64,000 nucleotides of DNA. It comes from Eimeria praecox (taxonomy: Eukaryota). The position numbers were made by a program, and so were the translations under genes. The notes beneath the pieces were generated by a model that saw only the letters and a list, made by a program, of their open reading frames with translations, made no database searches and was not told where the DNA came from. This document shows positions 1 to 46,400 of this stretch, one piece after another; position 1 is the stretch's first letter, and every line of letters starts with the position of its first letter. The stretch is taken from NCBI GenBank assembly GCA_963920595.1, contig OY986946.1, positions 186,001 to 250,000 on the forward strand. Reading direction: 5' to 3'.

Positions 1-3000
1 GGCGTCCTTCGGCAATCACTGCCAATGCGCGGAAAAAGCTAACTAGCGTGCGCTATTTTACCCTTCTTGTTAAAGCATATCGAATGGTGCTGCGAAGCAA
101 CTAGCCGTCTCTCAACAGCCGAAGGACAGATAGTTTGAGAGAATGCCAATAACGTATTTACTGTTTACAACTACCCCGAGGACAAAAGGGTGAACTCTAA
201 CAGAACGACCAGAAACACCAGTCTGGACTACGATTTCTGCTTCCCCTTGTACTGCCATTTAGGCGCACAGTGTGCAACGTGTTCGTCGCTCCTGTGCACA
301 GGCCCCATGCCTGCTTACCCGATTCGGGCACACCCTGCAATCGGTCGTAGTTGGACCATCGCTAATAACCTTCTTCCGGAGACCTTACAGCGCTCCAAAT
401 ACAGTCCTACACAAATGCACTGACATCGTGCCTGTCGTCCGGCTCTGCCTCACATAAGCATATCCCGTATCGGAGTGCTTCGCTACGAGAAAAGCCCGAC
501 AAAAGCAAGGAAAGAGCAACGGAAGCCGGCTTCGCCTCGCGTTGCAACCCAACAGACGTAAATGCATGCACGTACGCATCTGTGCTTGGTCTCATGATTG
601 CCAAAATGAACCAGATTGCTTGGGTTCCACTTCCATACTCTCTGGAAAAGACAGTGTACGAGTCCAACACCAGAGAGGGCTTCGCTCCACAGCGTTAACT
701 GACGAGCGCACACAATTTGCGCAACCCGACAATGCTCGCACATACTCCTCCCCTGACTATCCTCCAAATACAGTGTGCGCGCATTTCGGTAGACGGCGCC
801 AATTTCAATCAGGCCAGCAGAACAACGCCCAAGCTCGTTACCAACAGCAGAAACAATGCGGCTTGCTGCATGGGGCATTTTTGTTGAGCCCCGTCTTACT
901 GGACAGCTGAAGGAGTCAAAATGGTTCAGTAACCTACATATCGCACTTGAGTTGGTGCGTGGTGCAACCTGTTCGCCCCATATGCTGATGGAAATACGCT
1001 ACGAACACCCATTCCCGACACGGTTAACTCGAATGAGCTTCAGCGGCACCACCCTAGACTCCACCTGCTTGGGAAACGAAACAGCCTAATCAATCTCGCC
1101 AAGCCAGGAATGCCTGGCGTCGTTACGGGCTTCGCCATCTTCTGTGTGCCCCACTACCTACACAACGAGCCAAGCGTTCCGCGTTCTTTTGCACAAGTGC
1201 CACGCGAATCCGCATTACTTTCGTTATATTCACGCTGTTGGCAGCGGCTCGCCCTTCGCCATTCCTGCTATCCGCAGAACGGCTGTCATCATATATAACC
1301 AAAGTGGCCGTCAGTAGTACTACGCCTTTCCTACCAATCATTGCATAGTCGCTGCACCCCCTACCACGTATGGCAGTGCGCGTACAATGCCACGCCAAAC
1401 CACTGACGTCGTTTGCAATGCCAGCATTTGTCTCACAAACGCGCACCTGCCATCCAAGCATCAATAAAAGCCAGAGATGAGCAAGTTTAGAGGAAAACAA
1501 GTTGGGATTTCCCACACTGCAACTCTCTCAATCTGCACGCACGCACATACATCCCCATGCCTCCTGCCATACAAGCTGAAGCGTAACAGCAACCATGTTC
1601 GCGTTCACAAAAGAAATATTCCTGTCGACTGCTTCAGACCAGCACAGCATTGTCCTAGCTGGTATGTTCTTCGCCTCTGCTCAGCTTCACAGCCTTGTTG
1701 TGGACACACGTTCTGGGGAAAATAGCGCACAATCGGAACGCCAGAGAAGGCTTTGCCGCAGCGCGCTCGTGGCAAGCCAGATACAATGTTCACAAACCCT
1801 CAGTGCTCGCTTGTGCATATTCCCTAGTTCATGACCCAATAATGCACAAACCCATATCGTCAGGCTGGCCTAAGCAACTCCAAAGCTAAGTGCTAGTAGC
1901 AAAACCAAGCGGACCGCAGCATGGGGCATTCGTGCCAGATCGCTCCTTACTAGAGGACCAACGCCGAGAGATTATATTGAAGACGCTCGTAGAAAAGTAA
2001 TGGCATACAGGGATATGAACAGGTGCTTGCAGCTTGCCTCTGCGTACTGTGTTAGTGCGTCAACAACACATTGTAGAGGAATACGAAGCCTGGAGGCGGA
2101 CGAATAATGAATCCATAAATTGCACTCACTGTGAACACGGAACAGCCTAACTAGTCTGGCAAAATCACAAACAAACGCCTGCACTATGGCGTCTGCCTGC
2201 TGGTGTGTTGATCAATAACTACACATTGCGATAGGGTGTCTAAGGTTCCCGCCGCCTCAAGCCTAATGTGAATTTAGACCATTCGGACTGGCCGAAGCTA
2301 TTCCCGTTGTCTGCACGGCAACTGTTGTAGTACACGAACGGGATAAGCGCGAATGCTACTAATTAATATTACTTAGTCTTTAGAAAAATCCTCGGGTAGC
2401 TACTGCTTCCCCCACCATATATTGAGCTGCCAGTAGAATGACTCACCGATTCTCTCGCACTGCGCATAATGCCAGGCTCTGTCTCGCAAACGCAAGCCAC
2501 ATATCCAGACATCCTTGTATAGTAAGTACAGCAGAAGATCATACGCCTAGCAAAGCAAACGCATGCTCCTGCTGACAGCGCTTCTCTACAAATATGCTCA
2601 CGTGCAGTTACACGCCCACGTCAACCAACAGAAGGCGATAAACGTACGAGGATCCATACCAAGTGCCAAGCATATCGCTTTGCTTCTAAGTGCATACTTC
2701 CTGTGCAAAGCCGCACGGGATAGCAACGCCAGCGAAGGTTTGCCGTAGAACTCCTGTGGATGAGCTTATCTGAACAGACCAACCCCACGATGCATGCGCA
2801 TGGTGGGCCCCCAACACTACGCCAAAACAAGATTTATACTCTTATCAGCACGCAAAAATGATTTCAGGTAGGGCAGTCAAACACAGGCAAGACCAAAACA
2901 ACGTCAACCGCATGCAAATGGCTGCGCGGGACCCTTCTGCTCCACTCGCCACTCGCTTTGCCATAGGGAACGGCAAGTGCTGGCCCGCATATGCATGCCA

Positions 3001-16900: not shown

Positions 16901-19154
16901 TCTATATATCTGTATCTATATCTATATCTATATCTATATATCTATATCTATATATCTATATCTATATCTATATCTATATCTATATATCTATATCTATATA
17001 TCTATATCTATATATCTATATCTATATCTATATCTATATCTATATCTATATCTATATCTATATCTATATCTATATCTATATCTATATCTATATATCTATA
17101 TCTATATATCTATATCTATATATCTATATCTATATATCTATATCTATATATCTATATCTATATATCTATATCTATATCTATATCTATATATCTATATCTA
17201 TATATCTATATCTATATATCTATATCTATATATCTATATCTATATATCTATATCTATATATCTATATCTATATATCTATATCTATATATCTATATCTATA
17301 TATCTATATCTATATATCTATATCTATATATCTATATCTATATATCTATATCTATATCTATATCTATATCTATATCTATATCTATATCTATATCTATATC
17401 TATATCTATATCTATATCTATATCTATATCTATATCTATATCTATATCTATATCTATATCTATATCTATATCTATATCTATATCTATATCTATATCTATA
17501 TCTATATCTATATATCTATATCTATATATCTATATCTATATATCTATATCTATATATCTATATCTATATATCTATATCTATATATCTATATCTATATATC
17601 TATATCTATATCTATATCTATATATCTATATCTATATATCTATATCTATATATCTATATCTATATCTATATCTATATCTATATCTATATCTATATCTATA
17701 TCTATATCTATATCTATATCTATATCTATATCTATATCTATATCTATATCTATATCTATATCTATATCTATATCTATATCTATATCTATATCTATATCTA
17801 TATCTATATCTATATCTATATCTATATCTATATCTATATCTATATCTATATCTATATCTATATCTATATCTATATCTATATCTATATCTATATCTATATC
17901 TATATCTATATCTATATCTATATCTATATCTATATCTATATCTATATCTATATCTATATCTATATCTATATCTATATCTATATCTATATCTATATCTATA
18001 TCTATATCTATATCTATATCTATATCTATATCTATATCTATATCTATATCTATATCTATATCTATATCTATATCTATATCTATATCTATATCTATATCTA
18101 TATCTATATCTATATCTATATCTATATCTATATCTATATCTATATCTATATCTATATCTATATCTATATCTATATCTATATCTATATCTATATCTATATC
18201 TATATCTATATCTATATCTATATCTATATCTATATCTATATCTATATCTATATCTATATCTATATCTATATCTATATCTATATCTATATCTATATCTATA
18301 TCTATATCTATATCTATATCTATATCTATATCTATATCTATATCTATATCTATATCTATATCTATATCTATATCTATATCTATATCTATATCTATATCTA
18401 TATCTATATCTATATCTATATCTATATCTATATCTATATCTATATCTATATCTATATCTATATCTATATCTATATCTATATCTATATCTATATCTATATC
18501 TATATCTATATCTATATCTATATCTATATCTATATCTATATCTATATCTATATCTATATCTATATCTATATCTATATCTATATCTATATCTATATCTATA
18601 TCTATATCTATATCTATATCTATATCTATATCTATATCTATATCTATATCTATATCTATATCTATATCTATATCTATATCTATATCTATATCTATATCTA
18701 TATCTATATCTATATCTATATCTATATCTATATCTATATCTATATCTATATCTATATCTATATCTATATCTATATCTATATCTATATCTATATCTATATC
18801 TATATCTATATCTATATCTATATCTATATCTATATCTATATCTATATCTATATCTATATCTATATCTATATCTATATCTATATCTATATCTATATCTATA
18901 TCTATATCTATATCTATATCTATATCTATATCTATATCTATATCTATATCTATATCTATATCTATATCTATATCTATATCTATATCTATATCTATATCTA
19001 TATCTATATCTATATCTATATCTATATCTATATCTATATCTATATCTATATCTATATCTATATCTATATCTATATCTATATCTATATCTATATCTATATC
19101 TATATCTATATCTATATCTATATCTATATCTATATCTATATCTATATCTATCTA

Positions 19155-19208
<54 letters not shown>

Positions 19209-25200: not shown

Positions 25201-28200
25201 TTATCGACAGTGCTACTAAACCTTTTACACAAATCACCCCTTAGCCGCTGCTGCCTGGTGGCCACGGCGCCTCCCCATCCACTGACAATGCTTGCGGTGC
25301 ATGGCTATACCAAAGCATTCATACCTTGCAGATGCCAAAGACGAACGTAGGCACAGCAACCCAAACTCCCACCTATTGAACATTCAACCCCTTCTGAGAC
25401 ACCAAACATCCTGGACAGTAACAGAAACTGCACTCGAGCGGGAAAGATCCACCTGCGTCAATGCTCGTACTTCCTGGGCAAGCCAAGGCCGTTTCGCTGC
25501 AGCAAAGGACACTTCGCCACATTGCCGCCGGAATCAAGCACAGATACACTGCATAACCCCACGATGCTCATGTATGCAGGTATGCTAGCTCTCCGGCATG
25601 CTGATATTTTCCTGTCGGCTGGCCACAGTGATTTTAACCAGGGCACGCAAAGGAAAGCCAAGCTCAATGCCGAATGCAAAGCGCGGCAGGTAGCTGCGCT
25701 GGGTTTTCTTGTAGGCTTCTATGTTCTCTTATAGACAATGAAGACTGCAAATGGTAGAGAGAAAGATGATATAGCATTCATTTGACCTGATCGTAGCACG
25801 TTCGTGTACGATAAGAAAGGACAGCTGGTACAAATAACCTGCCGCACAAGAATAGCTACCACATATTTATGAATTGCACGCATACGAAACACAGAAGAGC
25901 AGACACACTTTTGTTAAACGAGGAACATCCGCCTGCATCACTTGTTCTTTCCCCGTTTGGGGCCCCTGGTTTTTCGATTGAACTGCCATGGCAATCTACA
26001 CATGCCCGATTTGGCGGTGCCATTCTCCAACGCCCGCCATTTTCCATTCCAGTCCTCCACTAAAAAGCTTAGCTCATTGTTTACCATGAAAGGAGGGGGC
26101 GGGTAGTAAGCATTGCAAAAAGCAAGGCGAAGACGTGTTTCGTATCACGCTGCAAATCAGCAGAAGGACGTTCACAACCATCCTTGCCATTAGCTAGCCC
26201 GAAATGGAGCAGTGCCCGTAACTGCACTCGCCAGATTGCACTGCTTGTACGCGCGTACGTTCTGCGCAAATCAGCGATCAAAAGCAACGCCGGAGACGGC
26301 TTCGCCACAACGTGTTCGCAGACGTTCGTGCACACAATCTGTATAGCCTTATGGCACTCATTGTTGCAGTTCCCCCCGCTCTCCATCAAATACTGCATAT
26401 ATTGCTGTCGCCAGGCGATGCTGAGTTCACCCAGGGCAACCGGTTCAACGCAAGGCTTAATGAATACTCCAAAGAGGTGCAGCTGGTCGAAACGTCGAGA
26501 ATCCAAACGATTAAAGGTGCAGCAGGGATATATCACACATAGACGATGACAGGCTTTGTCACGTTCGTCTCTGTTGATTACGGAGAAGTGCTCTGAACAC
26601 CCTCCAAAGGGATGACTAGCTTGGATGGCCACTTATACGCTCAAAAATGTTACCCTGTCCCCACATAATACAGCTAGTAACCTCGGCAAGCTCGAAACAC
26701 CCGCATGCTCTACACGCTCCTCCCTTTGTGTAATACTCAATAGCTACACAATGAGCTACTGGTTCGGTGTCGTGCACTACCAGTTGTTTTGTGATATCAA
26801 ATAACTACGCAATACGCTACGAGATTTACCAAACCCCGCTCAGATATTGGCTAGTCGTGCTGGTCGTGCCTCCGGCAGGCCGCCGACTGAAGCCCCCCCT
26901 TCGCTATTCCCATCCTCCGCATGGCCACTACCGTCATGCATTCCCGGGCTGAAGGGCAGTGCTACTAAGGTTTTGCAGCAAATAGCCGCGGCTAAGTGCT
27001 TGTTCCTTGCGCATATCGCGATGCAAGCACACTGCCACACACGTTCACCGACATCGCTTTTAATGCCATTATGTCCCCCAAACGCGCATCGGGGTTGTAA
27101 GTGCTCTAAGGGGATATCTTAACAAGAACATACTTGCTGGTCCAGCCCGCGGACGATCGCAATGTTAGAGCAGGTTATGCCAAACACTGCGCCAATATGC
27201 TCGCACAAACCAGCGCCGATATGCTCGCAGATGGTGCTTCCCTAGGCCTCAGCCATGTATTGCCTATCGGCGGGCGGGGAGGACCGAGCTCAAGCGTCAC
27301 TTTGGAATGGGACACCTGGACGCATTTGGCTCCTCTTGTAGTTGGAGGTTCAACCAGAATCCAAAAGGTTCGAGACATTCTAAAGTTATCACGAGCTCGC
27401 AGGCGGAGGGCCTGCAAGCACCTTTCCGCAGCTGCGCCAGCATATTACCGTGAGAAACCGAGCTTGAACAAAGTGGGTGGCGCATGCACAAATTGCACGT
27501 ACTCCGAAAAGAAAAGGCTACATTCGCCCAGCGAATCCAAAGCAACCGTTTTTTACTGCGCTTCTCCCTGTTTGTGTTGAGCAATATCTGCACAATGAGC
27601 TAACGGCTCTGCCTACTCCTTTGCTTTGCAAAGACTTGGAGGCCCTACCTAACCCCACGCAGGCCGTGCTGCAGGCTGCAACCCGCCCTTTGTTGCTCCC
27701 ATCCTGCGGATAACAATTACCTCCACGCAATGCCGTGCTGACGAGCAATGATATTAAACGTCTGAAGCAACTCATCGCGAGTCGTTGATTTCCTACCACA
27801 TATTGCAGTGTTCGTCTACTGTCTAACAGATTCGCTTACATCTTTTGCAGTTCCAGACTGCCTCCCTCAAACGCACATCGTCTATCGAAACACTCCACCC
27901 CTAAACATACCAGACACAAGCACCACACTGCAAGCGGATCATCCGCTTCTCACTCTGCAAATCTGCAAATCTGCTTGCAAGCGTCTACCCCTACATGTCA
28001 GCGAGCAGAAAACGTTTAATGTGTAAAGGCAGCCCGGAAGGCGAATGGGCGTCTAAGTGCACACTTCCTGGCCAAATCAAGGTTGACTCTAGCTCTGGAA
28101 CAGGCGTCTCCACACGGCAGAAGCAGGCGCTCGCGCATAACGTCAATAAAGTCCCAACTGTCGCGCATGCACGTCCTGTAGGTCGCAGATGTATACTGCC

Positions 28201-31200
28201 CATACGCATATCAGAAGGCGGAGCTGCTTCAATCAAAGCAGGCGAACGAAGCCCAAGCGACGCCAACTGCAAAGGAGACAAATGGCTGCATGAGGCAGCC
28301 TTGGCACATAGACTCCAGCGAAACTACGAACTAAAATCTAACTGTTCTGGATATCTGAAAGATATGATGGAATTATAGACTGTCAGCCTGCTTCCTGCTT
28401 GCCTTCGGGTACTATGCTTGACACTTTCCAGCGAGCTACTGAACTCGAACGAAAACTGGTAGCACATTAATAAGCCGCATCTACTCTAGACGAAACAGCT
28501 TAACTGGTCTCACCGAACCAGAAATACCATTACTGGCTCCTCTTTCTTTTATGCTCCCCAGTTACTACGTTTATGCAAACGGCGTGCGGGATTACACGAT
28601 CCGTAGTGGTAGCGCTGGCCGTGGTCTGCCCTTCGCTATTTGCAGTCGCAAGGCTATTGCCGCTAAGCACACCCAAGCATGTCGCCGATGCAATTAAGCA
28701 TGTGACAAAAATAAGGGTGAAGCCCTTTCTTACTCCTCGCATGTATTGTGCCGCACAGATCCTGCCTCAGTAATTCACTGATGCACTTTGCAGTGCACGC
28801 ATCTGTCTCGCAAACGCATATCGCACGAAGAACCACCCAGCTTCAGCAGGTGCCCAACACCTAGATCAAAACGAACTGGTACTCATCCCTATATTGTGAT
28901 ACCATATATCTACCATATACCTGAACAATTCACACGTGGACTATCATACCTTGGCCCAGAATATTAATGTACTGCTGGGGGTACGCACGCGCCCCCAACA
29001 GTTCGAGCAGCTAAGCGATTCACATTTGCGCAACTCTGTAGCCATACTCTCTGTGCGAACCAACGCACCTTCGTGACGCGAGAGAACACTTCTTCGCAAA
29101 TATTTCGTAGACGCGCTCACGGAAATCCTAGAACAACACCTTGCTCACGATGGTCTCAATTGTAGGTTTCGTAGTGCTCCACCAAGTCCCCCATGTCCCT
29201 TCGGCAGATGGGCGCGGGTTCAGCCGTAGTTAGCGAAAGCATGCTTAATACTGGCTGCAAAATGCTGCTGCGTCCATTGATCTTGGTCACGCTCTCGTCC
29301 GCTGAACGGCTCTTCGGTCCTCGCTCACTTGCAAAGGAAATGGCATGGTACACAGTGAAAGGTAATCAACACTGCTACAGAACGCTTGGCACAGTTTTGT
29401 TGTTGCTGCTTCCTCTTGCCGCGTTCTGCGCAGGACAAATGTTGCCCCGCCTATTCGCTGGAAATGTTTGCAATATCGGAAGAGGCCTCGCAAACCCACA
29501 TCGCGTTTCTAAATGCCCGGCCCACTAGACCTCAAAGAAGAACAAAGTTAAGGGAAGCGAGCATCGATTTCTCGCACTGCAGCCCCGCATGCCTTCAAGC
29601 ATGCCTGCATACAGCCATGACTACCGCCAAAAAACCTGAACCAAAACAGCTGTCGTCCCAGCGTCGAATAGATGCATCATACTTCCTGGACGAAGCAGCG
29701 CATGATGATGAGGGAAAAGAAAGCTAAGCCAAATCGTCGCTACAACCAGGCGCACATAATCTGCATAGGCCCACGATGCTGACACCCGCAGGTCCCGTAG
29801 CCCTCCGGCAAATACTGCCCGTTTTCTTCTCCGCAGACTGAGCTGCCTTCAACCAGCTCAAGCAAGCCAAGCTGAAGCTCAGTACCAACTGCGAAACATG
29901 GGACATGGTTGCATGGGGCATGCCGGGCCATTCCCTTCTTCGAAAGCCAATGAAGAAGTTTGCGAGGCGTCAGGGGCTTGCAAATCGACGGCTTGTTTTC
30001 CGTTTGCCCCTGCCTACTAGGTTAAAATCTATCAGCGTTTTGCAAGAAGATGCCGGGATTGAGTGACAATGAGTAACATATTCACATGCTACACCTACTT
30101 GGAATACAAAGCCGCTTAACTGATCGTGCCAAAAAGAAATACCCGCCTGCACTGCGAGTTACGCTTTACTCTGCGTTTTCCAATAAACACACACTACCGC
30201 TAAGGGTTCTACTTATTTTCGTCCAGCCCCATGCCCGTTTACACAATTTATGCTGCCCTCCGCAGGAGGACGGCTCTTCACCCTTGACTGCTCATGTCAT
30301 CCGCAGTACAGTTGCAATCACACGTAACCACCCTGTGAGTCAACCATACTAAACCTTTGACAGACGTAATTGGGCACGCATTGCTTCCTCTTACCACGTG
30401 TTTCCTTACACATATACTGCTTCGCCAATCTAGTGAAAACGGTTGTTATGTCACATGCTGTCTCGCAAGCGCATACGGCGTGTCCAAATGTCCCGGCCCA
30501 TTAGGTAGCAACTTTCACCACAGTAAACGGAAAAACAAAATGCTCTGCCCTGCGCTGTAGCAGTAAAAAATTGCATTCATGCAAATACATTCCCATTCCT
30601 GCTCGCATACAATCTGAAATGTACCAACGTCCGTATCTCCGTTCAGAAGATGAATTTGTTTCGGCGTTTCACACTCGCGTCAAACAATTCAAGCTGACAA
30701 ACGCTACGCGTACCCGCAACTCTTTTCGTTATTTATGTGCATACGTCCTGGGTAAAACAATGGGGAGCCCAAACGTTAGAGAATGATTCGCCACACGGTG
30801 GCACCGAACGCAAGAGCATACGCTGCATATTCCAACGATGCTTACACATTCACCTCTCCTGCCACTCCAGCAGCCACTGAGTGGCTTATTCCTTTCCGCA
30901 AAAGTAGATGATCCCGACAAGGCCAGTCGAACGGACTCCAAGCTCAATACCAACTGAGAAACGAGGCAGACGGCTGTACGGGACGTTCTTGTTCTCCTTT
31001 CTTTGACGCCCGAAGAGTGTCGAAAATACCCAAGCAGCTCGCCAGGCATCATGGCGCTAGGGCTGCGGCTCTGCTTCCCGGTTTCAGCTGCTACTATGGT
31101 ATTTCTTCGGCACTTTAATGAGCTTGAACGAGAATAGATTGGGCATTCACAAGCTGCACCTACTCCAACCTCAAAACGGCTTAACTGATTTCTCCAAAGC

Positions 31201-34200
31201 GAAACCATTTGCACAGACTAAAGGGTTCTTCTTCTTCCGCCTTACCCTATAGCTGTACAGTAGGCTAGGGCTTTCGCAGTGTCTTTTCCGAGACCCACGG
31301 AAATTAAAACAACTTGTGGCGTTTAGGCTACTTGCCGCGGAGCAAAATACGATAATAAGATTGTGCACCAAATGACAAATACACCCATATCCAGGCTGGT
31401 CGACAATGCAAGCAAACATTAGGACGAATACCCTGTAATATTTGAGTCTCCCTTTTGCGTATTGCGCTGCTCATGCGCACCCTTTACCGATTAACTTACA
31501 TCGCTGTTATTATCATAGCTTGCCCTGCACACGCATGCCAAGTAGTGAATTACCCCGTCGTTGTAGAGACGAACGCAAAGCGCGGCAAACGCAAAGCGCT
31601 CCTCCACTTCTCCCCATAATGCTTATACAGAAGCCTGGTCCCATAAACGCGTTCGCACCCCCGCCCAAAGAACCTGAACCCCGGCATTATTCAGACCTCC
31701 GCCGATCAAACACGATTGCTCCTACGCTCATACTGCCTGGAAAAGGCAACACACCACTGGAACTTAACAGGGCACCTTGCCACGCCGCGGCAGCAGGTGC
31801 GCGCAAACAAAACTACACAACGCCACGATGCTCAAGCATGCAGGCGCCCCGCAGGTTTCTCTTTTTTCAATGCTAGCCATTACCTGTACAATCAAATACA
31901 GATCCCCAAGCACTTCTGTGCAGGCGCCATGCGAATCTACGAGATTCGTGTTGCATGCATCGTCATCTATGCTCAGCCGTTCGCCATGAGCATCCCCCAC
32001 ACAACAACTGCCGTCATACCTCATAGGGTTGATCCGCAATTCCACTGACGATTTGACAGAAATCATTGCGTATTCACTGCTCCTTCCTTAGGCATTATGT
32101 TGCATATAAAGTGCTCCATCATTTGAATGGAACCTCTTGGAATCTCAGAGTCTGCCTTCCGGACTCATAGCACGGAGGAACTACTGTCCGAAAAAGAGTA
32201 CGATGAATGCAAAAATACCTCCCAGCTATTCTCATACTGCAACTGCGCATGCCTGTATGTATGCTTCTACACTCCCATGCCTCACATGAGATAGCGTGAA
32301 GCATAGCAGCATGCATGCACTTGCCCGAAAGAGAAACATGCTTCTATGCGCATACTGCCTGCAAAAATCAGTAGCCAATCGTATCTCCAAGAACAGCTGC
32401 CCCACACCGTTTTCGTGTGCATTTCGAGCACGAACAAGTTAAGCCCACAATGCGCACGCATGCAGGCTCCCTAGTGCTCAGTCAAATACTGCGTACACTG
32501 CTTTCGGCAGAAAGAGGTAACTTCAACCAAAGCATGCGAAGCCCGCCGAAGGCCAACGATAATCAAAAATGTTCAGCGCATTCAGGAGGCACCGTGTGCT
32601 TGGAGGCCGAGGGCATGCTTTTCTTTGCCCCTTCATATTATGTTGGAGTGCTACGAACGCTTTGCCCTGAGATGTCAAGCTCGAAGGAATGCCAATAGCA
32701 CGTTCATAAGTTGCACCTCCTCCGAGTCATAGAGGTTAACTACCCTTGCTACAAAAAAAACCGTCTGCACTGCAGGTGCCCCTCGTCTTTGTGATACCTA
32801 ATAACTACACGCTGTGATACCGGTTGCACCTTCGCTTCTGCAAGCGCCAAGCGAATCTGCTCAATTCATGTTTATCCCGCAGCCAGCGGTGGCCTGCCCT
32901 TCTCTGGTCCCGTCGCTGGCTGCCAATAACCTTTCCCACTTATCAGTGAGTAATTGCTCCTCCATTCTCTCATGTATTGCGCTGCACACATACTGCGTCG
33001 CCAATTGATAGCTATCGTTTGTATTGTCACACTCTGCCTCGCAAGCGCATATCCCGTATCGAAGCACCCAGCACCAGCGCATACCAAAACAGGGGACGGG
33101 TAGAGCAAGAGTCCCTACTCCCTCTCTGAAACAGCTCGACAAATCTGGCCGCATCCGCACACATATTCATGCCTGCTCGCGTACTATCTGAAACATATTC
33201 GTATCCACAACAGGGCCCAGAAACTTGATTTGGTCCGGGCGCTTCACGCACCACCTGCAAACAGGTCGAGCTAAGACGCGTTCCTTATCTCAGCAATGGC
33301 GCAGATCTGCTAGCTAATTAGGTCCTTACGCTCTGGGTGATACATCGACCGATCTCAGTGGCCGAGAAAGCTTCACCACACTGTGTGCTTAGGCGTGTGC
33401 GCACAAATTGCTTTAGCCCACGAAAGGGCACACCCACAAGCTTGCTGGCCCTCTTCAGTATGATCACATGGCATCACTTGCGTGCAAAGGAGGGCTTGCT
33501 TCCCTTTTGCCTATTGGAATGCTTTGGGCACTTTCCAGTCAGCCAACCGAAATCGAACCTTTGCCGTGGCGCGATGCGGATTTACAAATTATGTTGGCTG
33601 CGCCGCCAGATTCAGCCCTCGTTTCGCTCCTCCTGTCGCACCTCAAAACCAGGAATACCTTACACAAACGAGACAAGCGCTAATGCTGCTTAATGTACTA
33701 AACACTTGACACAAATCACAGCGTAACCGCTGGACCCTCCTGCCATGCATTTCCCTTGACATCCATTGGCACACCAATTAATCGACTTAGTTTGCTCTGC
33801 TCATTCTTGTCAAGCAAACGTATAGCGCTCTTCAAAGCACGCCATCCCTATAAAAGACACAAGGAGCAAGGGTAAAGCAAATGGAAGTCTCACCTTGAAC
33901 AATGCAAGCGTGCGGATGCCAGCAATTGATCTCTGACGCCAGACACACTGAGACCTCGCAGTACTCGCAGACGCGCAAAGTGGACGCAAAACCTTCTAAA
34001 TGCATACGTCCTGGGAACAAAAATAAGCGATCATAGTGGCGACGAACGGTTTGCCTAGCCGTGGCTGAAATCGTGTAGACCCACAAACCGCATTATCCCA
34101 CGATGATCCTACCTCCGGCTGTGCTAGCTCCGCCAAATATTGTCTGTATTCCTATCCGCAGACGGAACTGCGTTTAACAAATGAAAGCAACACAAGGTGC

Positions 34201-37200
34201 AGTTCAGTATCAACTGTGAAACAAGGCGTCTGACTGCATCGGGCGGCGGCTGCTGTTGGAAGGCAAACGAGAATCGAAAATGCTGGAAGTTTTCAGGGTC
34301 TGTCAGATCAGGGGCCTGACTCCCGCTTACCCCTACCTATTAAGTTGGCCTGCTACCAGCGTTCTGTCACAGGATGCAGAGCTTGATTGAAAATGAGTGA
34401 CACATATGTGTGTTTTACCAACTTGGAAGGTACAACAGCATTACTGGTCTCACAAAGCCAAAAGCACCCGCCTGCAGCGCACGTTGCGCTTTTCCGGTGT
34501 TACCCAGCTGGTGCACAGTGGACGACGGGCTCCGCGTCGTGGGAGCTGCACGCATACATACGCAACTCACGTTGGCCGTGCGCTCGACGGCTACCCGCCC
34601 TTGCGTATTCTCGCCATCCGGAAAATTGCCACTCCCATACATAAACGGGCGGATTGCTAAGGTCAGTGAGGCATTAGAAAAAAGGCATCACGTTGTTGCT
34701 TTTTCCTACAACGGTGCTTCGTGCTGCGGATGCACTGCCCTACCCATTCACTGGCATCACTTACTATTGTGTGGCACTCTGTCTCGCAGGCACATATCGA
34801 GTATCGAAGCAATCTGCCCCAGTAGAAGTCAAACAAAGTCAGAGCTGAAGTTAAAAATGTTGATTCGCTGCACACTGCAACTCCACGAGTATGCGCGTAA
34901 GGGCATACAAGTGTATGCCTGCTCCCATACAAGCTGGATTGTAGCATTGCCACCAACAGCAAAACGACGATATAGTTCGCATCAACACCATCACAGGATG
35001 CTAAATGCTTAGCCCCTCAGCAGGGGCCTGCACCTAGAGGTGTGCATACTCTCTAGACAAAATGGCACGCGATCGCAAGGCCGCGCCTGCACACAAACAA
35101 CTTCGTACCAAGATTCTCACATAGGGAGGATCCATAGCTTGCCGTCGATTACTTTACATGCAGCGGCAGGCGAATCGTACTGCAAGCAGTCCAAGCTTAA
35201 TATCAAGAGCGCAGCAAAGCCGCAGCCTGCACGGACCGGGATCGACGATTCGCTCCACATCGCATCCCGGGTTACAATCACGCATTTGCAGCACTCCCGC
35301 GAGGAATCATGTGCATGTAGGAAACATGATGACATCCCATTTGCATCTACTGTTGCCAAACTGTAAGCACTTTGTACTGAGATAGGGAGCTAAAACAAAA
35401 ATGAACGACACATTCATAAAGTACACCTACTCCGAACAGAAAACCTCCGTACTAGTATCGCCCGGCGAAAAGCATCTGCCTGGTACCCTGTTATGCTTGT
35501 GGCTCTCATTAGCGACACACACAAGCGATTGTGGGCTCCGCAGCTTTTCGTGCAAGCCTCATATGCATTTGCATAATTCATGCTCGTCGCGCTTCCAGCC
35601 ACGGGCATCCCTCGGGTATCGCCGCCCTGTGCAGTACAACAACTGGGCTGGTCGCCATGACACCTAAGCCCTTGCCACAAACCACCATGTGGCCCCTGCT
35701 TCCCCATACAACGTATGGCACTGCATAGACGCCATCTCACCATTACACGAATACATTCTGCAATTTCACTCTCTGTCTTAGAAACGCACATCGCGTTTCG
35801 AAGCACATCGCCCAAGTAATTAGCAGAAAATGGGGCTAAAGGGGGAGGCTGCTCCAGCACACCTTCACACCGCATTCCTAGGGATCTGCACGCAAGCTTA
35901 TCTAGATCCAAGATTGCCACCATGCACGCTGAGGCACAACGGTGTCCGTCACTTCCCCCGGAATATAAGGATTCCTCTAAGCGCATACTTGCTATGCAAA
36001 ACGGCGGGAGATAGTAATGACAGCTTTCTTTTGCTCTAATCACACGACGGGTGTGCCACTGGCTCCATGCTCTCGTTTGTAATTTGCAGGCACGTTTGCA
36101 CAACTCGTGTTGGCCCTTTCGTCAGCCGTGGCCGGTTCATCCGCAGAAGACCTATCATAATGCATATCCAGGTTAAGGTAAGGTTGCCAGTGCTGTTAAA
36201 GTATCTGGCACAAGCCGCAGCGTTATCCTTGTCTCGTTTTTGCAAATACTGAGCTGGCCATATGCCGCCTCACAAGTTCATTGACGGACTTCAAAACGTC
36301 AGGATATGTGCGGCAAAAGCTTGTAGTGTATCGAAAAAAACCCGCCCCAGTGGGCAACAAAGAAGGGCATGCCACAGCAAAACCAGGCTCACTCGTCTGT
36401 ACTTTGTAACTCTCATAATTCGCATGCATGCATATATCTGCATCTATGGACGTTTGCATACAGCCTGAGACGCAGGAGCACCCATATTCGTGCCGTGCAG
36501 ACGGCTTTGTTGCTGATAGAGTAGCTGCTTGGCTAACCACCACATGATCGTTAGCAGTGAGGCCTGTAGACGCCAGCACGCAAGGTGCATAACCCCACAA
36601 AGCTCGCACATGTAGGGTCGCAGACTCGCCGCCCTGTAATGTGGCTGCCTATGCTCCTACAGGCAAACTACACGGATTCTCACAAGGGCAAGCGAAAAAA
36701 ACCGAAGTTCTATACGAAATTCAAAGCTGTGCATCCGGCTGCATGGGGCCTCCCCGCTCAGCCCCTTCTTGTTGGGAGATCAACAAGAGTCAAATCTGTT
36801 CACAACACTCGGAGCAGATCACGGCTATGGCAGCAGCAGATCTGCTTGCCCTTGCCTTCTGGCAACTATGTTGGGATATCACCATCCCCATGCCGTGTCA
36901 TACCCCGCTCGAACGAAACTAATTAACGCCTGAAGGCAAAGATCCTTCTTTAGCCTCGTCACAACAGATACACTCGCCTGCAATGCAGGTTCCTCTTTCG
37001 TTTGTGCTAGCCAATGGATATACAACAGCCTTCCGTCCCGCCTTACACCCATGCAAACACCATAACAATCTACACGATTAATGGTGACGTGCTTGCCGCC
37101 TTTCGCTGTTGTTGCCCTCTGCCGAATGGGTGCCACCATGCATTACTGGGCCTGTCGAAGACCTTATTGCGCCTTTGGTAGAAAGCTAAGCGTAGTCGCT

Positions 37201-40200
37201 GTTTTCCCTCATCACGGACTGCGTTGCGTACATAATGCCTTGCAAATTCGATGGCATCGCTTGCGATCTCGGGCTCTGTCTTGCAAGTGCACTGCGCGGA
37301 TGGAAACACCACGCGCAAGCAGAGAAAAGCAAACGGAGCACGTGCTTTCCTTCACACTGCTCCTCTAAGAACATTGACGCATCCCTATACGCATTTATGC
37401 CTGTTTCCATACAGACTGAAACGTAAATGTATCAATTGCTGCCCCAGGATGTGGATCTGCATCGTGTAATTCGCACTTTCCAGAAAGTACACTCCGCATC
37501 TCCGGGACACTGGTATCAGGCTATTTACATACTCTCTGGCCGAAATAGCGTGCGAGTAGAGTATCGAGCTCGAACGAAAATAAGTAACAGATTGTAGGGT
37601 GCACCTCCACCGAACACAAAACAGCTTACCTAATCCTTGCAACCAGAACCACCCGCCTATACTGTAGATTGGTATTTCTTTTCTGTTGCTCAGCAGCTGC
37701 ACAAAGTAGCAGGCGCCCTATTACTTTCTTTACACGCCCTACGCGGGTCTGCACAGCTTGTGTTGGTCTTCCAGTCAGCTCCTGCCTCCCCATCGCTACT
37801 ATCGTCATCCGCAGAATAACTGTAATCCACAACTGGGATGATCACCAGTAGCGCCAGGTCTTCCGCAAAAAAAACATTAATCTATCGCTGCGTCTTTCTT
37901 TCACGCAATACGCTGCAAATAGGCTGCGCTGCCCATTCACTGGCATACTTGGAAATGGCGTACTCTGTTTCGAAAATTCCGATCACGTGTCGAAAGACTC
38001 CAGGCCAGCAGATACCGGAGACTAGCACGGATAGACAGAAAGAAAATCGTACTTCTCAATATGCAACTCCAGAGATCTGCACGCGCGCAAATCCACATTA
38101 CGGTCAAAGACCCCGAAACGTAACAGTATCATCGCTGTCCCCAGAAATTGTGTTTGCTTCGTCAGCTCCAACCGCGTTGACAGCCGGTTCGGCGCGCACG
38201 TCCCGTGCACTTCCTTAGCTACGGAAGCTATTTATGCGCTCACTCTCTGGCCAAAACAGCGGGGGAATTGGAACTGAGGAGAAGGCTTCGCCACACGGCG
38301 ACTGCTGGTGCGTTCATACAAGCTGCATGAAACTGCGATGCTCACACACAGAGCACGGGTAACTCTTTCCCTAGTACTGCATGCATGCCCCTTGGCAGAG
38401 AGAGTGGATTTCAATTAAGGCGGGTGAGCAAAACCCAAACTAAGTGCCAACTGCAACACCAAGCAGATGGTTTCATAGGGCCTCCTTGGAGAAACGCTTC
38501 TTGTTGGAAGCTGAACGAGATTCAAAATAGTTCTAAACGCTGAAGAAGCATCAGCGCCGTAGAGGTGAACGACCTGCCCCTACGTCGGTGCTGCTTCCTC
38601 AAGCGCAGTAGTATCAACACTCCAACATAAATTGCAAACAAGCTCGAACGAAAATGAGCTTTGACCACCTATGATTCGCAGCTGCTCCCACTGCCCGTGC
38701 GCATCCGCACAATTCGGGTTCGTCGCTCTGTTGTCACGTAGCCGCCCTTAGGCATTCCCCCATAGCCGCAGCAATCAAGCGTACCCGGCAGCTTCAAAGT
38801 GTTACTCATTGTTTGTACAATACAAATTGCCGCGTACTTGTTATTTCTTCGAACCTCGAATTGCGCTTCACGTATACCTTCTCTCCAAATAAAATGTTGC
38901 ATGCCGCGCTGTAGCATTCTGGTGGGCACCTCCTCATTAGGAACTAAAGAAAAGTGCAGATAAACCTACATGAGCTAGTACCTCCCCTTACCTTGCAATT
39001 ACGCACATGCACACACGTAGCGGTACGCATCCACGCCTGTCCACATACAAGCTGAAACGCCAAGGCGGCATAAACTCCTCCGGGAGACTGGATTTGAATG
39101 AAGTGCTTCTCACGTGCTAGAACCTTTCCTGGGTGCCAAACCCTTCTCATCTTCGCGCGCCTAGCAAGTAGCTATTTGCGTACTTTCTGGCCAACATGGC
39201 GTGCGATCATAACGGCATAGGAAGCTCTACCACACCGGGACGCTAGCCGCGCGTATGCAAACTGCATATTTCCGCGGTGTTCATGCATGCAGATTCCTCA
39301 GATCCCCCGCAAGTACTGCTGACACTCGTATGGACAGACGGGGTTGATTCCAGCAAGAGCAAACGTGTCAAGCCCAACCTTGACAATAAGTACAAAACGC
39401 GGCAGCTAGCTGGTTGGGGAGAATTCGGACAGTAGATGTTTGTTGGAAGACCCACGAAAAACGAAAATTTCTAATTGTGTAAAACGCTCGCGACGTTCCA
39501 TGCACGCCAGATCGCGGTGATGCCTCTTGTTTGCCTATCTATACTATATCGTGCTATCAGCACTTTACACTTGACAACCCGAACAACGTTGGGTAACACA
39601 TTTATCTGCTGCACTTCCTCCAAACAAACCTCAGCTTAACTAATTTGGCAGGACTAAGCCTGTCTGCAGTGCAGGCTCAGCTCCCGTTTGTGGCACCGTC
39701 TAGCGGCAGAATGAGCTAGGGGTTCCATATGATTCTGTGCAAAGGCCATGCGGGTTTACACAGTTCATCGTTGTGGCACTTTCGGCCGCTGGCCTGCTTT
39801 TCTCAATTTCCATCATGCGCAAAGCCTCTACCGCGTACGCTAACCAGCGGACCAGCAATGCTACGGAACGCTAGGCGGCAGTCACACCGCTTTCGCTGCC
39901 TCCCCCTACCGCATATACTTTGCAATTCACGCCACCCCAGTGACACAGTTTGTAGTGCCGCATTCTATCTCGCAGGCACGCACTGCACGTCAAACAGCTC
40001 CCGCGCAGTGGATACCACAGAACATCGCGGCTGATGTTAAACCAACTCCTGCTTCCTGTCACACTGCAAGTCCACATTTGGAAGCCAAGGTAGGCGCGCA
40101 TCAACACATGCATTCGTGCGTTCCGTTGGACAGCCCGAAAAGCAAACGCAGGCTTAGCGGTGCCCAGAAGGTGAATGCTCTCATGGTGCATCCTACATGC

Positions 40201-40440
40201 CACTGCGCGTTGGAGCTCCTAGGCACTTCACATCCTCGCACCTCTGGAAGCTAATTATGTGCATACCTCCTGGTAAGCGTAGAGCGTGACTGGAACGGAA
40301 GATGCGGATTCGACACACCGTGCCTGAATACCGGAGGATTCAAGCTGCATACGTCCGCATGACTCACGGCAGCAATGCACGTAGACCCTCCAGTTATCGG
40401 CTGTAGTCTCTGTGCGCCTATCGACAGAATGAGCTGCTTT

Positions 40441-40474
<34 letters not shown>

Positions 40475-43400
40475 AAGGCAAACTTCAATAACAACTGCAA
40501 AACAATGCACCTAATCGCACGAAGCAGGCTTGTCGGATTGGTTCCCGTTAGCGCGATTTTAGATGCTCGAAATGAAGAAATAGCGCGCATGGAGGATAAG
40601 CACGGCATTACTGAGCTTCAAACCCGCTACTGCGTTACGGTTAACCCTAAACAACACCCGACACACAAACACAAGGCGCACGTCGTCTGCACTCGAAGCA
40701 ACCTAACTACTCTCGCCAAACGGTGTCGTAGTTCTGCGCTATGAGTTCCGCGTCCTTTTGTCATCCCCAATACCTAAGCGGCGAGCAACGGATTCCTCGT
40801 CTCCCCGTGCAAGCTCTATGCGAATTTAAGCAATTCCTGAAGTTCACACAGCCGGATGCTGTTAGTGGCCCCCTTAAAGCAACTAACAGAATAACCGGGC
40901 AGACCGCCAACGCTACTAAATATATGGTACAAATCGCTGCTTAATCTCTGCGTGCTGTTACTACTAGCTAAGGTACCCAGATGGTGACTCGCGAATTCAT
41001 TAAGATCGTTTTTAATGTCGGACTCCGTCTCGCGAACGCATAGCGCATGTCGAGGCATCCGGCATCAGTACACGCCGAAGAAAAGCGCAGATAGACAAAA
41101 CGAGCACCCGCTTTCCCTTTCACAGCAACTGCACAGATCTGCGCGTAGGACACCCTGCATATCCACCTGAGTTCGCATACTGCCTACAGCGGAGCAATAC
41201 CCTCAAACGCTCCGAGCAGATGCCTGTGCTGCTCACAGCATCGTTGGTGCGCAAACCATGACAGGATCGAGGGTGCAAAGAAAGCAAAATACTTCCTAAA
41301 CACTTGTTGATAGGCGGATTCAATTTCATCCAGGGCAAATCAACAAACCCCAGGCCAAATACCGGCCGCAGCAGGAGGCAGCTGGCTCCAAGGGCTGTCC
41401 CTTTCGAATCGCGTCTTGTTGGAAACCAGCACGAATCCAGAATCTACAAGCCATGCAAGCTGTGTCTGCTCGAAAAGGACAGCGTAAGTCCTCTGGTTAA
41501 GCCAAAGTTACGCACCTGTGCTCCGAGCTTGCCTTTTCCTTCAGTGCGAGCATACAGGAGAAGCGACGCTCATAGAATGTTTGTTCTGGCATACGATTTC
41601 CCTATTCCCAAACGTCGTGAACGTCTTTCCTTCGCTACTTCCGCCATCCGCAGAACTGGTGCCATCATGCATCACTGGGCTGGTCCGCAGCCCTAGTAAG
41701 CGTTTTGGGTAAAACAACGCGTAGCCGGCTTTCACCCCTATCACGCGCTGCGCTGCAAATGCAATTAAACGATATTATTCATGACGCTAGATTGTGTCGT
41801 GCTAACCCATACCGCGTACTAAAACGCCTTTCACAAGTGCATGTAGTAGAAGAGCACGAGCAGGGTTCTCGTACAAGCTGGAAGGTGGAACACACAACAA
41901 CGGGCGAACGGTTGGAAGCGATTCGGCTACTTCAGAATTGGTGCAAGCTGCATGGCGTGCTGAACGTGCCGCATTTCCGCTCCTCTGGCAGCGAGTTAGA
42001 TGAATACGTTATGGACAAACCCCCGTGCGATCTCAATGCTCGGGAAGGCATCCTCACACAGCGCCCGTAAACACAAGCATGGGCACCTCGTGCACACGTG
42101 TGAGCACATCGGGTCCTTTGCTCACACAGCCAGGTCTACGAGGCTCCTTTTGCTAGATGGAGGCGAGTCCTTGTAAGGCAAACGAGCCAAGCCCAAACCC
42201 TGAATGTCCTGCAAAACAGTGCTTCTGGCCGCACCGGGTGTGCCGGCGAAATCATTTCTACCTGGCAGCCCAATAAGATGAAGACAAAGAAGTGCGCATC
42301 ACCAGCATGCATGACTTTGCGCTGTATTACGTTGGTCTCGGACATTCACGGAAGCGTGTTACAAACATCCTCTGATAAGTCGGTTAGACCGAAACAATGG
42401 AAGTAGCACATCAAGCTGCACCTGTTCCGAAACGAAAACAGAATGGGTTATTCAGCCAAACAGGGAATACTCTACTGAGTTACGAGTTTCGTTTTCTTTT
42501 GTGTTAACCATGCAAGCGCCCCTTAGGTTTAGAGGTCCACGGCTTCTGTTCTTGCCGGCGTTTTGCTATACGCGTTCTCTGCAGAACAGCGAAGATAGCA
42601 TAACGGGTATTGCACCCAGTCGGCATAGACGTTTGACACGAATCACAGATCAGCCATTCATACCTCGTATTACATACTGCTCGGCACATACACTGCCTCA
42701 TCATTTCATTTGCACTGTCTGCAGTGCTAAACGTGGCCGCATCAAAACATGGCACCCACCGGAGCACTGCTTCCATTAGCAATCAAAGCCCAACGCAGGT
42801 AGGTTAAACCAATCTCCATTTCCTTACACTGTTACTCCAGAAATCTTCACGCATGCACACGCACCTTAGTCCCTGTTATCAGACAGTCTGAGATGCAGAA
42901 GCGCCCATACCTAACCATCCCAAGACCTAAGCTCCAAGTGCATACGTCCTGGACGAAGGGGCGACCCGTGGTAAAGCTACACAAAGCTTCTTCACACCAC
43001 GAGTGCAGGTGCAGGCATACAAACTGCATAGCCCCATGATGCCCTCTCATGTAGTCGCTGCACCGTTTGTGCCATTTACTGATTAGTCGACTCCTACCGG
43101 CAGAGGAAGCAACGTATGGACAAGGGAAGCGAACCATGTGGAGGCTCAGTGTCAACTGCAGAACGAGCCAGCTGGCTGTATGGGATGTTCCTGCCGTAAC
43201 ACGTTTGGTTGGACAAACTAGAGAGAGTCGAAAATGTTCAAGATGTTCACCCGGCATGACGGCACTGCAGTCCGACGGCCTACATCCTCTTCGCTTGTGC
43301 CTACGACGCCGCCGTAGCTTACCGGGCACGAACGCAAATGATGCATTCTTACGTTTCGCCTACTGCAGATACAAAGTAGCTTAAGTGTGAATTTATACCC

Positions 43401-46400
43401 GGGCCATCCCCTTTAACCCCCAGGTTTCCTTTATTTTGTGTTACTCAATAGCCGCAACTGGTGCTACAAATCCTGCTTTCTCCTGTGCGCGTGCCATGCG
43501 GATCGTGTCCACAGCCCTTGGCCGTCATGCTGCAGGCAGCAGTGCAATCTCATCTACTCCTGTCACTCGCCGAAAAGTAGCCATCAGACGCACGCGCAGT
43601 GACCTTCAATCATTGTAGACGACACAAACCAGTGCGCAGTCCGTTTTGACTCCTATTATGTACTGCGCGGCACACGCCCTGACAATTCTGTGTCACTATG
43701 TCTGATGCCAGGCTCTGTGCTACAAGCGCATGCCGGGTATCGGAAATTCCCGCCCCAGCAGACACCAAAAATAAGGGCACAGCTAAAGCAAAGAGGCTTC
43801 AACGTCTGCTGAGCCCGCAATTGCGTGAAGTGCACGCTGGCACATACACAAACATGCCTGATCGCATACAAACTGAACCGTAAACGTCCCCTTAGCCGCG
43901 TAAAAAAACTGGATTTATTTGTGGTGCTATGCACTTTCACAAACACCTCGAGCTGCTGAATGCATCGCCTCGGCGCACTTCTTAAAGCTAGTTTTGTGCA
44001 TACGTGCTGAACAAAAAGCGCACGATCCGAAGCCCGGGAGTCGTAATACTGCACCTGAAGACACGAGCACGCAAATCGCATAACCGTATTATGCGAACGT
44101 ATGCAGGTCCCCTAGCTCCTCGGCTCCTCGGGATATATAAAAACGTTTTCAAGCGTGGCCAGTAAACCAGCCAAAGATAAGGAATGTTTAAGGCGTTGAG
44201 GGAACATCAAGGGAATGGCGACGCGGAGCCTGCTTCCCGTTTGCCTCGGCATGCTACGGTGATTTGCTATCAATGCCTTGCCGTAAGCTAGCCAGAACCC
44301 ACGAAAATAGATAACACATTCATACGGTGCCACTTCGTCGAACACAAGACAGCATGGCTAGTCTCAGCAAACCAGAAGTACCAACCCGCACCACGAGCTC
44401 CGCTTTCCTTTGTGTTAAGTAATCATTATATGGTGGCTTACGGGTGCCGCATTCCTTTGTGCAAATGCTGCATGGCTCTACACAATTCGCGGCTTCGCCG
44501 TTGCTCGCGGCCCCACCTTCTCGAACCCCCATAAAACAAACAATTATTATGCTTACCCTAGGATATCGCCAAAGTTACTAAACGTGGGAGGCAAATGACC
44601 GAGCAGCGAGCAGTTCTTCCTATCCTGTGTGGGGCCGCGGATATAAAGCCTCACCAATTGATTGATAGTCTGTAGTGCCAGTCTGTCTCGCCAGCGCACT
44701 GCGCATTTTCATACACCCCGCCTCTGTAGGTACCAATCAAGAGCCCAGCTACAGCAAAGCAAGATAATCGCTTCTCTTCACGCAGGATTTCCACAAAGCT
44801 GCACGCTGCATAAGTACATCAATACATCCAGGGAGACAGCCTGAGACCTATCCATCCACCAAGCCGAGCCGACGAGTTAGCGTCAAACTGCATAGGCACT
44901 GGCCAAACCATCCCAATACTACAACGCTAGAAAAGGCTTCACCATCCTGTATCACCAGAGCAAAGCGCAAATACTACACACCTTTACAATGCTTACACAT
45001 GCACGCCCCGTAGCGTTCCGTGAGGCATCGCCTATGCTCTCTCAACAGGCCTTCCTGCTCTCTCCGCAAATACCATTTCCCAAGACGGCCCTTCAAGGCA
45101 TGCCCGTGCATATCAACGAGAACGTATATAATGCCCTCAGCCTTCCTAGAAACCCAGGACGAACCGCCGCCCGCACCGTTTGCAGAACCGTACACCCACC
45201 GCCACACGCCATGTTCCCTCAGCACAACCTTTCCCACTTTCTGCATACAGCCGTTCACACACCTGGAATTGCTTCAAACCATCACCATCCCTCTCTTTTC
45301 AAAAGCCAAAATATCTCAAAGTATCGCAAACAGCGAATGCGAACAAACACGCCACTACGGACCACTAACGCACCTCCTGTGAAACACCACACCCACTGCC
45401 ATACACCATACACAGTGATCCCACCTAGCTGCTCCCTCCTAGAACGCCCCCCACCCGTACAGTACAACGCCCATAATCACATCTGCCTCAGAGCAAGCAA
45501 GCCCTACCCATACCACGCGTGCTCACATAAACACCAACACCTCACGATACGCACTTCCTGCGAAACACCACATCCTCTCCCACACACCCTGCACCCTCAA
45601 AACATTCTCCACCCGCCCCCTGCAGACAGTTATCGGTCGGTCCCCATCAACTCCAAATAAAATCCCTGATCACCCTCATCAACCCAAACAAACATCAAAC
45701 CGCCCTCCTGCGTCTGTAGACGTTCCAGCGCACACAGCGCTACTCACCTCCTGTGAAACACCATGTAGATATCTACTCCCACGCAGCATACGCGCTCAAC
45801 GAACGCACCTTCATTCTCTCTCTCAAACTCTCCACTCCTGTACTCCACACTGTCACCACTCACCTTTGCTCCTATTTGCAAAACTAGCACAATCCACCAC
45901 GCCTTTACAGCCACTTCGCTGCGGACAACTAACTCACTTCCTGTGAACAACCATTCATATGGCCCCACACCTTGTTAACGTTAACGCACCATGCTACCCT
46001 CTCTGCACATATCCCGACCCAGGCGAACTACAGGCAACACCTGCCTCTGCTCCTGAATGTAAACCCACAACAAAACATGCGCCTATACAGGAAGGCCGCA
46101 GCAAACGACCTAACTCACCTTCGGTCAAACACAGCACCCACTCTCACACACCATCCGCTCCAAGCCCAACTGCCTCCGCTCTCTGCATGTATCCCTTACC
46201 ATACTCAACAGCCAAAACACCTGCCTCTCGTGCGAAATCGCAGCCTATCCCAAATCATCGTGTCTCTAGTCAGCATGGGCACCCTTGCGCACCTTCTGTA
46301 AAACACCACAACTACGCCAACACAAGCAGCTCATCCTGAAGGCGCCTTCTTGCTCTCCCTTTCTCTCTCTGCCTCCAACCATCTGCCCCCATGCTTAACG

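Follow-up and report, generated by a model that had tools for sequence, protein, structure and literature searches.

The 64,000-nucleotide (nt) stretch of Eimeria praecox contig OY986946.1 analysed here (assembly GCA_963920595.1, positions 186,001 to 250,000 of the forward strand; hereafter the window) is probably the middle of a single minus-strand gene, in which about 139 consecutive exons of one codon each would encode a long alpha-helical rod. The candidate exons are cassettes made of a splice acceptor, three nucleotides and a splice donor. In total, 139 strong cassettes were counted, 37 at a site A and 12 at a site B of an old tandem array (49..45009) and 90 in a young higher-order repeat, which extends from about 45.3 kb to the window end (cassettes at 45374..63979) and continues beyond it. 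Judged by how the sequence has evolved, these cassettes are very likely translated exons, and their mostly ordered inclusion is likely as well. The argument is built on units that have diverged while the motif within them stayed fixed, and on patterns that appear at the level of amino acids.

The old array was tiled end to end with a profile hidden Markov model built from 42 units, which gave about 42 units of ~1.07 kb each (consensus length 1,068-1,083 nt), all on the minus strand. The tiling is interrupted by an 8.26-kb (TCTATA)n microsatellite (10951..19207, no strand assigned), lying inside a predicted 9,024-nt intron between the cassettes at 19280 and 10253; the other predicted introns of the array measure 60-1,098 nt. 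The units have a mean pairwise identity of about 49%, and their tree is star-like, with end branches of a median 0.44 substitutions per site. At one homologous position of the unit alignment, site A, an intact minus-strand cassette YAG-NNN-GTRNG is present in 37 units (639..44006), the triplets of which have their lowest base at 44004, 42946, 40267, 39184, 38244, 37533, 35989, 35050, 34008, 33330, 32356, 31734, 30745, 29683, 29048, 28065, 27134, 26259, 25471, 24567, 23568, 22718, 22089, 20988, 20135, 19280, 10253, 9201, 7588, 6532, 5782, 4770, 4300, 3264, 2698, 1710 and 639. The position has decayed in the remaining five (at about 44896, 42008, 41244, 36507 and 8232, also on the minus strand), of which the last four belong to units with an intact site B. 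The initial annotation, which had proposed a run of consecutive one-codon exons in these units, counted AG-NNN-GT in 38 of the 42; the motif is indeed kept and the four cassettes quoted as examples (639, 4300, 35050 and 38244) are present, but the 38th (41181) is by alignment a site-B cassette, its unit having a decayed site A. Accordingly, its tally for acceptor position -3 (C 34, T 3, A 1, never G) becomes C 34, T 2 and A 1 in the 37, still with no G, and the near-invariant G at donor position +5 is found in 36 of 37 rather than 37 of 38. Donor position +3 is a purine in all 37, position +4 takes all four bases, and 14 different triplets occur at the fixed 3-nt length, as had been claimed. 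The triplets are mainly codons for Glu, Arg, Lys, Ala, Asp and Gln, and T is scarce in them (2 of 111 bases for about 8 expected).

The fixed spacing and the conservation of site A are both far from background. On its minus strand, the old array contains 60 matches to YAG-N3-GTRNG, compared with 6 on the plus strand, with an expectation of 15.8 and a maximum of 25 in 30 order-3 Markov simulations; with spacers of 0-2 and 4-15 nt, the same half-sites were met 7-24 times on the minus strand. The narrower CAG-N3-GTAYG was observed 39 times versus 2.0 expected, and the spectrum of exon lengths has only one peak, 35 cassettes at 3 nt, with at most five at any other length. Under drift at 0.65 identity per column, about 7.5 units would be expected to keep both AG and GT, and even at 0.8 identity per column, the chance of 37 in 42 is 3e-10. 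The per-column check suggested in the initial annotation came out as predicted: AG and GT are preserved together, in all four columns, in 37 of 42 units, whereas 975 equally spaced column sets gave a mean of 0.20 and a best unrelated value of 0.50, and the triplet columns (0.40, 0.57 and 0.67) lie at or below the background median of 0.655, with positions 1 and 2 diverging more than background. The cassette is the most conserved window of the unit (0.81 versus a mean of 0.65; next-best 11-nt window 0.77). Since the units had been cut at the motif, a leave-one-out test was run with profiles from the upstream flank only (-100 to -13); after exclusion of two units that were not located and four that scored below 8 bits, 26 of the 36 located units pointed to within 4 nt of AG-N3-GT, compared with a 5% background. 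The acceptors have pyrimidine tracts (7.6 of 11 positions versus 5.1 for 2,540 other AGs), and a consensus CGAT lies at about -23 to -20 of site A, with GTGAT or GTGGT upstream of the cassettes in the young repeat and no fixed CTRAC. In its YAG acceptors with pyrimidine tract and its GTRNG donors, both under purifying selection, the old array matches U2-type spliceosomal microexons.

Splice signals that are far more conserved than the triplets would also be expected if the cassettes were stepping stones of the spliceosome, similar to recursive splicing, or exons of a non-coding host transcript, with triplets irrelevant as codons; the purine-rich triplets could then reflect splicing preferences. 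We consider this highly improbable, given that the 3-nt length is fixed in three independent site types and that patterns at the amino-acid level, described below, accompany it. Introns of 60-1,100 nt need no ratchet points, no Rfam family was matched in the window, and the introns contain no strongly conserved element that they could be hosting (compare the 0.77 of the next-best window). Two specific candidates of this kind were rejected: recursive splicing ratchet points, as the zero-length AG-GT junction in the old array is at background (12 versus 12.3 expected), and an intron-hosted array of small nucleolar RNAs or microRNAs, as there is no Rfam match and intron conservation is flat.

The behaviour of a second site speaks most directly to translation. 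The unit consensus contains another AG-NNN-GT, site B, ~135 nt downstream of site A in undeleted units; the region is kept in 39 units and deleted in three. Twelve minus-strand site-B cassettes of the form YAG-NNN-GTAYG are intact (1573..43872, with triplets at 43870, 41875, 41181, 39049, 37413, 36462, 34931, 33185, 30611, 9138, 8170 and 1573). Their preservation is all-or-none: the six key positions are jointly intact in 12 of 39 units for 4.4 expected from column frequencies, a count reached in 0 of 20,000 permutations. Of the five units in which site A is dead, four keep site B, versus 8 of the 37 in which site A is intact (Fisher p 0.018). The claim of one cassette per unit holds for some units only; eight units have two and one has none. 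The intact sites encode Leu (5), Ala (3), Ile (2), Phe (1) and Ser (1). Leu, Ile or Phe is found at 8 of 12 intact sites versus 0 of 27 dead ones (p 8e-6); with Val counted, the comparison is 8 of 12 versus 5 of 27 (p 0.008). Dead triplets mostly stay near the ancestral Ala codon, with 72% identity to the consensus versus 47% in the intact ones (p 0.013). As this shift occurs only at intact sites, while the flanks of intact and dead sites are equally diverged and the intact units are scattered over a tree built with the cassette columns masked, the triplet seems to behave as a codon only together with its splice sites. This is, in our reading of the alignment, the strongest argument that the triplet bases reach a protein. 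An apparent clade of seven units with intact site B was discarded, because it was gone once the cassette columns had been masked. A third AG-NNN-GT of the unit consensus, site C, ~75 nt upstream of site A on the minus strand (3339..43023; 43021, 38320, 26336, 24635 and 3339), has the full motif in only 5 of the 42 units, near the drift expectation, and was rejected as a further set of exons.

The young repeat on the minus strand has a period of ~1,475 bp, and 12 full copies could be aligned, which are 97% alike. Each copy is made up of eight subunits, roughly 185 bp long (range 168-201 bp) and no more than ~52% alike, and each subunit carries one cassette CAG-RRR-GTG(A/C/T)G, whose columns form the densest block common to the eight. 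Among the 102 cassette sites, 90 have AG, GT and the +5 G; their triplets are GAA (26), GAG (26), AAG (26) and AGG (12), that is, 52 Glu, 26 Lys and 12 Arg codons. Joined in order, they give 13 blocks with four Glu each; of the 12 basic blocks in between, 11 have three residues and one has four. Pairs of opposite charge outnumber those of the same charge by 73 to 14 at i+3 and by 75 to 11 at i+4. Two of the subunits form a Lys toggle pair (46119..63979, minus strand). In three copies the donor of subunit 7 is weakened, its +5 G being replaced by T (63977, 62502 and 53659), and there subunit 8 is intact (63802, 62327 and 53484); of the 10 copies in which subunit 7 is strong, 9 have a dead acceptor (CCG) in subunit 8. 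This alternation between the two subunits keeps the period at seven. Among seven sites tabulated in the 12 copies, the sole changed triplet (AAG to CAG, 53659-53661) is one whose donor was already weakened, as expected after release from selection. Three of the eight cassettes are preceded, at distances of 19 and 31 nt, by extra AG-NNN-GT motifs (TGG, CAG and TGT), which are too near to be separate exons and are possible alternatives. Between the two arrays lies a weak cassette, TATGCAG-AAA-GTGGG (45238-45240), which could be a degenerate extra exon. The young repeat has no significant similarity to the 1-kb unit (best E 0.23), so a common origin of the two was dropped as unsupported. The old and young arrays share the splice consensus and the 3-nt length, with different donor variants.

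Both arrays could alternatively be satellites, in which an AG-NNN-GT box is kept as a DNA-binding site with a free 3-base spacer, comparable to the CENP-B box, or as a recombination signal, without splicing or translation. Higher-order repeats beside a long microsatellite resemble centromeric or subtelomeric DNA, and the window has both; moreover, a single orientation is automatic in a tandem array, splicing is here a prediction, and no Pfam match was found for the 19 scanned of 79 open reading frames of at least 120 amino acids. Control searches with a triple-cassette pattern found 0 loci in the prokaryote genomes searched and eight in metagenomes (L002, 3686-4456, minus strand; L004, L005, L007 and L008; L001, L003 and L006), all with AG-NNN-GT in most units. 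They represent three unrelated types of minisatellite, with units of 38 bp, ~64 bp and roughly 48-60 bp. The existence of such minisatellites means that a young repeat with the motif proves little alone. In comparison with the window, to which they have no similarity, their units are near-identical and, among the cassettes listed, almost always bear one triplet. The box would also leave the pyrimidine tract, the absence of G at -3, the purine at +3 and the G at +5 unexplained, as well as a splice consensus that is all that two unrelated arrays have in common and a shift to Leu, Ile and Phe at intact B sites only. Overall, we judge it very unlikely that the motif is kept for a non-splicing reason. 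One of the control loci, L002, has a ~64-bp unit with a pyrimidine tract and TGAT upstream, and might itself be a young array of one-codon exons.

Returning to the proposed chain of one-codon exons, the 49 triplets of sites A and B, read in order, contain 0, 2 and 5 stops in the three frames, the codon-per-exon frame being the only one free of stops. The 49 predicted residues include Glu (8), Arg (8), Ala (7), Leu (6) and Lys (4) among others, and no Pro, Cys, Trp or Tyr. Six of the ten large hydrophobic residues (4, 8, 15, 18, 22 and 39) fall on one a/d heptad register, and 2, 41, 45 and 48 lie outside it; the best 21-residue window is amphipathic at p 0.003-0.006 when B is reassigned among units and at p 0.014-0.021 when residues are shuffled. 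The predicted product of the old array is a Leu/Ile heptad stretch, followed by a charged stretch and a second amphipathic one, while the young repeat is predicted to contribute at least 90 residues in alternating blocks of four Glu and three Arg or Lys, the pattern of a single alpha-helix (SAH). Provided that splicing occurs, these 90 residues, all Glu, Lys or Arg, have the features by which an SAH is recognised: opposite charges at i+3 and i+4, no hydrophobic seam and a length above 40 residues. The SAHs known to us are all encoded by ordinary exons. The one-codon-exon idea of the initial annotation is therefore strongly supported by sequence evolution, with splicing a prediction, but the chain it described was incomplete, as the 12 site-B and the 90 young-repeat cassettes belong to it. 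The junction probe proposed there leaves out five B cassettes (33185, 30611, 9138, 8170 and 1573) and would for that reason likely fail even if the idea is right.

Real exons of this kind might instead be used combinatorially, in the manner described for the nank genes of truffles and the micro-exon genes of schistosomes, each transcript taking a different subset and the gene producing a family of diverse helices, such as a variable protein for surface display or recognition. Each exon is frame-neutral, divergence exceeds background at positions 1 and 2 of the A triplets and in the intact B triplets, and the published nank genes, considered below, work so according to the passages available (PMC4986451, PMC9815663). 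We find this unlikely for the window, where the compensation between sites A and B, the 7/8 toggle and the heptad register all need most exons to be included in order, and where skipping among 90 sites with only four codon types would yield little chemical diversity. Another possibility is that a former microexon gene has become a pseudogene in decay and that its young repeat is spreading in the manner of a selfish satellite. The five dead A sites among 42 and the 8-kb microsatellite within the array would fit such decay; nevertheless, site B makes up for the losses, the chain is still free of stops and 90 of 102 young-repeat sites are strong, which makes it barely credible, although the microexon gene may have lost its function very recently.

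Several points weigh against a translated chain of one-codon exons. The prediction of splicing draws on the DNA sequence alone, and no start, stop or conventional exon was found within the window. The alignment tests are partly circular, since the motif itself served as the anchor for unit boundaries and training sets, and the leave-one-out test missed 10 of 36 units, four with dead sites and six with misplaced alignments. Moreover, 79 of the 120 GTAYG donors of the old array lie outside cassettes, which leaves the choice of sites unexplained. The absence of stops is weak evidence by itself, with a chance of 0.07-0.24 for 37 sites; the A-only chain (0, 1 and 0 stops per frame) is also open in frame 2, and no stop could arise, whatever the frame, from the purine-only triplets of the young repeat. 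Frame 2 of the young repeat likewise contains opposite-charge pairs, though with 26 Gly, and the order of four acidic and three basic residues arises by chance in one of five cyclic orders. The toggle reaches p 0.014 among copies that are related and may record one or two events only. Over its whole length, the 49-residue chain is not significant at the heptad angle of 102.9 degrees (p 0.24-0.59), and the heptad windows and sites were picked after looking. Finally, AG-N3-GT is borne by unrelated young minisatellites as well.

If the cassettes are exons, the gene would extend from past position 64,000 to past position 1. It may have originated from an intron-plus-codon unit that was duplicated in tandem, once in an old burst and once as a block of eight subunits that is still amplifying; selection would keep the splice sites and tune the codons, leaving the intron bodies to drift. 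A 3-nt exon is too small for its two splice sites to be bound simultaneously, and splicing would consequently be acceptor-first and processive from the 5' end: each acceptor would first be joined to the growing upstream exon, after which the donor 3 nt downstream would be used. Because any exon can be skipped with the frame kept, some variation in length is likely, albeit the compensation patterns favour mostly constitutive inclusion. The more detailed proposal, which we hold to be moderately probable, is a rod of more than 139 residues, one per exon, that is spliced near-constitutively across more than 64 kb and whose protein sequence is written by satellite-style evolution. There, an 8-subunit repeat with one subunit off would set the 7-residue period of the single helix, and the gain or loss of individual one-codon exons by point changes would hold the coiled-coil register in the old array. 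Such a rod might serve as a spacer or work like a lever, its SAH segment leading into one that dimerises or is amphipathic.

The DNA of the old array is genuine, as contigs from two studies match the window with 0 differences in long pieces covering most of 27.5-45.4 kb. Contig depth on the young repeat was ~9-28 times that of the unique region, the repeat being collapsed. In three public runs, no donor-to-next-acceptor joint was seen among 15 of 18 joints within 27500-47000; these runs behave as DNA and are silent on splicing. One of them, X1, also contains contigs of low depth (2-4 versus 51) that are ~85% alike to introns of three units (29952-30062, 32419-32575 and 32765-32884) and possibly stem from an orthologous array of a related organism present at a low level. 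Three X1 contigs with different flanks fit the site-A cassette region 38228-38261 at 85% or more, better than any other unit of the window (best other match 26 of 34), which means that homologous cassettes exist outside the window. The microsatellite at 10951-19207 lies within one old-array unit and is flanked by short (TA)n and (GA)n runs; its length is unconfirmed by the matching contigs. The unit with the cassette at 20135 contains a local tandem duplication (19509-19779) of ~123-148 bp with 89% identity and, together with the 2698 unit (65% alike), makes the sole strongly supported sister pair of the old array. The minus strand is G-rich and mostly T-rich, with a GC skew of 0.07-0.19 in most bins of the old array and of ~0.5 in the young repeat; such a skew would be expected of the sense strand of introns, though it is also inherited from the units. 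The window has ~50% G+C and is enriched in TGCATGCA (10 occurrences versus 0.5 expected), a richness that is a feature of coccidians and some green algae.

Should splicing take place as predicted, the window would hold consecutive 3-nt exons in a run far exceeding any that we have found in print, with less than 1% of its DNA coding. It would be a natural test of how the spliceosome deals with exons below the size of exon definition, and of splicing order and fidelity over more than 100 steps. If each step succeeded 99% of the time, no more than about one transcript in four would be complete. DNA annotated as satellite or higher-order repeat could then code while remaining invisible to gene finders and read aligners, and the gain and loss of exons could serve as single-residue insertions and deletions under selection at the protein level.

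The known systems closest to this arrangement involve short exons or SAHs. Single ultra-short exons are on record: plant APC11 and VPS55 have 1-nt exons and adjacent 5- and 12-nt exons are known (excerpts of PMC8831610), and 3-nt exons are reported in Amphidinium (excerpts of PMC12584245). They demonstrate that spliceosomes can include exons of 1-3 nt, but in the accounts given there they stand singly or paired between ordinary exons, unlike the long consecutive runs of the window. The micro-exon genes of Schistosoma, as far as portrayed in the available part of PMC8293314, have symmetric exons of up to 36 bp and varied length, encode proteins exposed to host immunity and lack homologues outside schistosomes. 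The likeness lies in a gene built largely from short symmetric exons, whose omission leaves the reading frame intact; the predicted exons of the window differ in being all 3 nt long and in deriving from tandem intron-plus-codon units. At the protein level, SAHs are rich in Glu, Lys and Arg with i+3/i+4 pairs, and the most stable of the seven-residue designs in the accessible text of Wolny et al. (PMC5347031) has one Arg and two Lys. Against these designed AEEEXXX heptads, the predicted young-repeat product likewise has a period of 7, Glu, Arg and Lys only, and one Arg with two Lys, and differs by a fourth acidic residue in place of Ala.

The nearest precedent is found in the nank (NACHT-ankyrin) genes of Tuber melanosporum, which are described in the parts available of PMC4986451 and PMC9815663, citing Iotti et al. 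(2012, Fungal Biol 116:261), as containing dozens of alternatively spliced 3-bp mini-exons. The initial annotation, which did not recognise such an architecture as described, is thereby corrected. Our literature search, outside which most subscription papers fell, returned no report of this locus or of an SAH or other helix encoded by one-codon exons. By analogy, the window may work like the truffle arrays in architecture, sharing dozens of 3-bp exons in one gene, here as 139 cassettes predicted at the DNA level. The truffle mini-exons, according to the same excerpts, are alternatively spliced and diversify an NLR recognition domain, whereas no NLR domain was seen in the window, where 19 of 79 open reading frames were scanned, and the codons of the latter form a periodic helix, which argues for ordered inclusion. 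The window also differs in having at least 139 such exons in 64 kb, in units of up to 1 kb that are ~50% diverged. What is new with respect to the truffle precedent is the scale and age of the array, the compensation between exon gain and loss, and a repeat period that matches the period of the helix.

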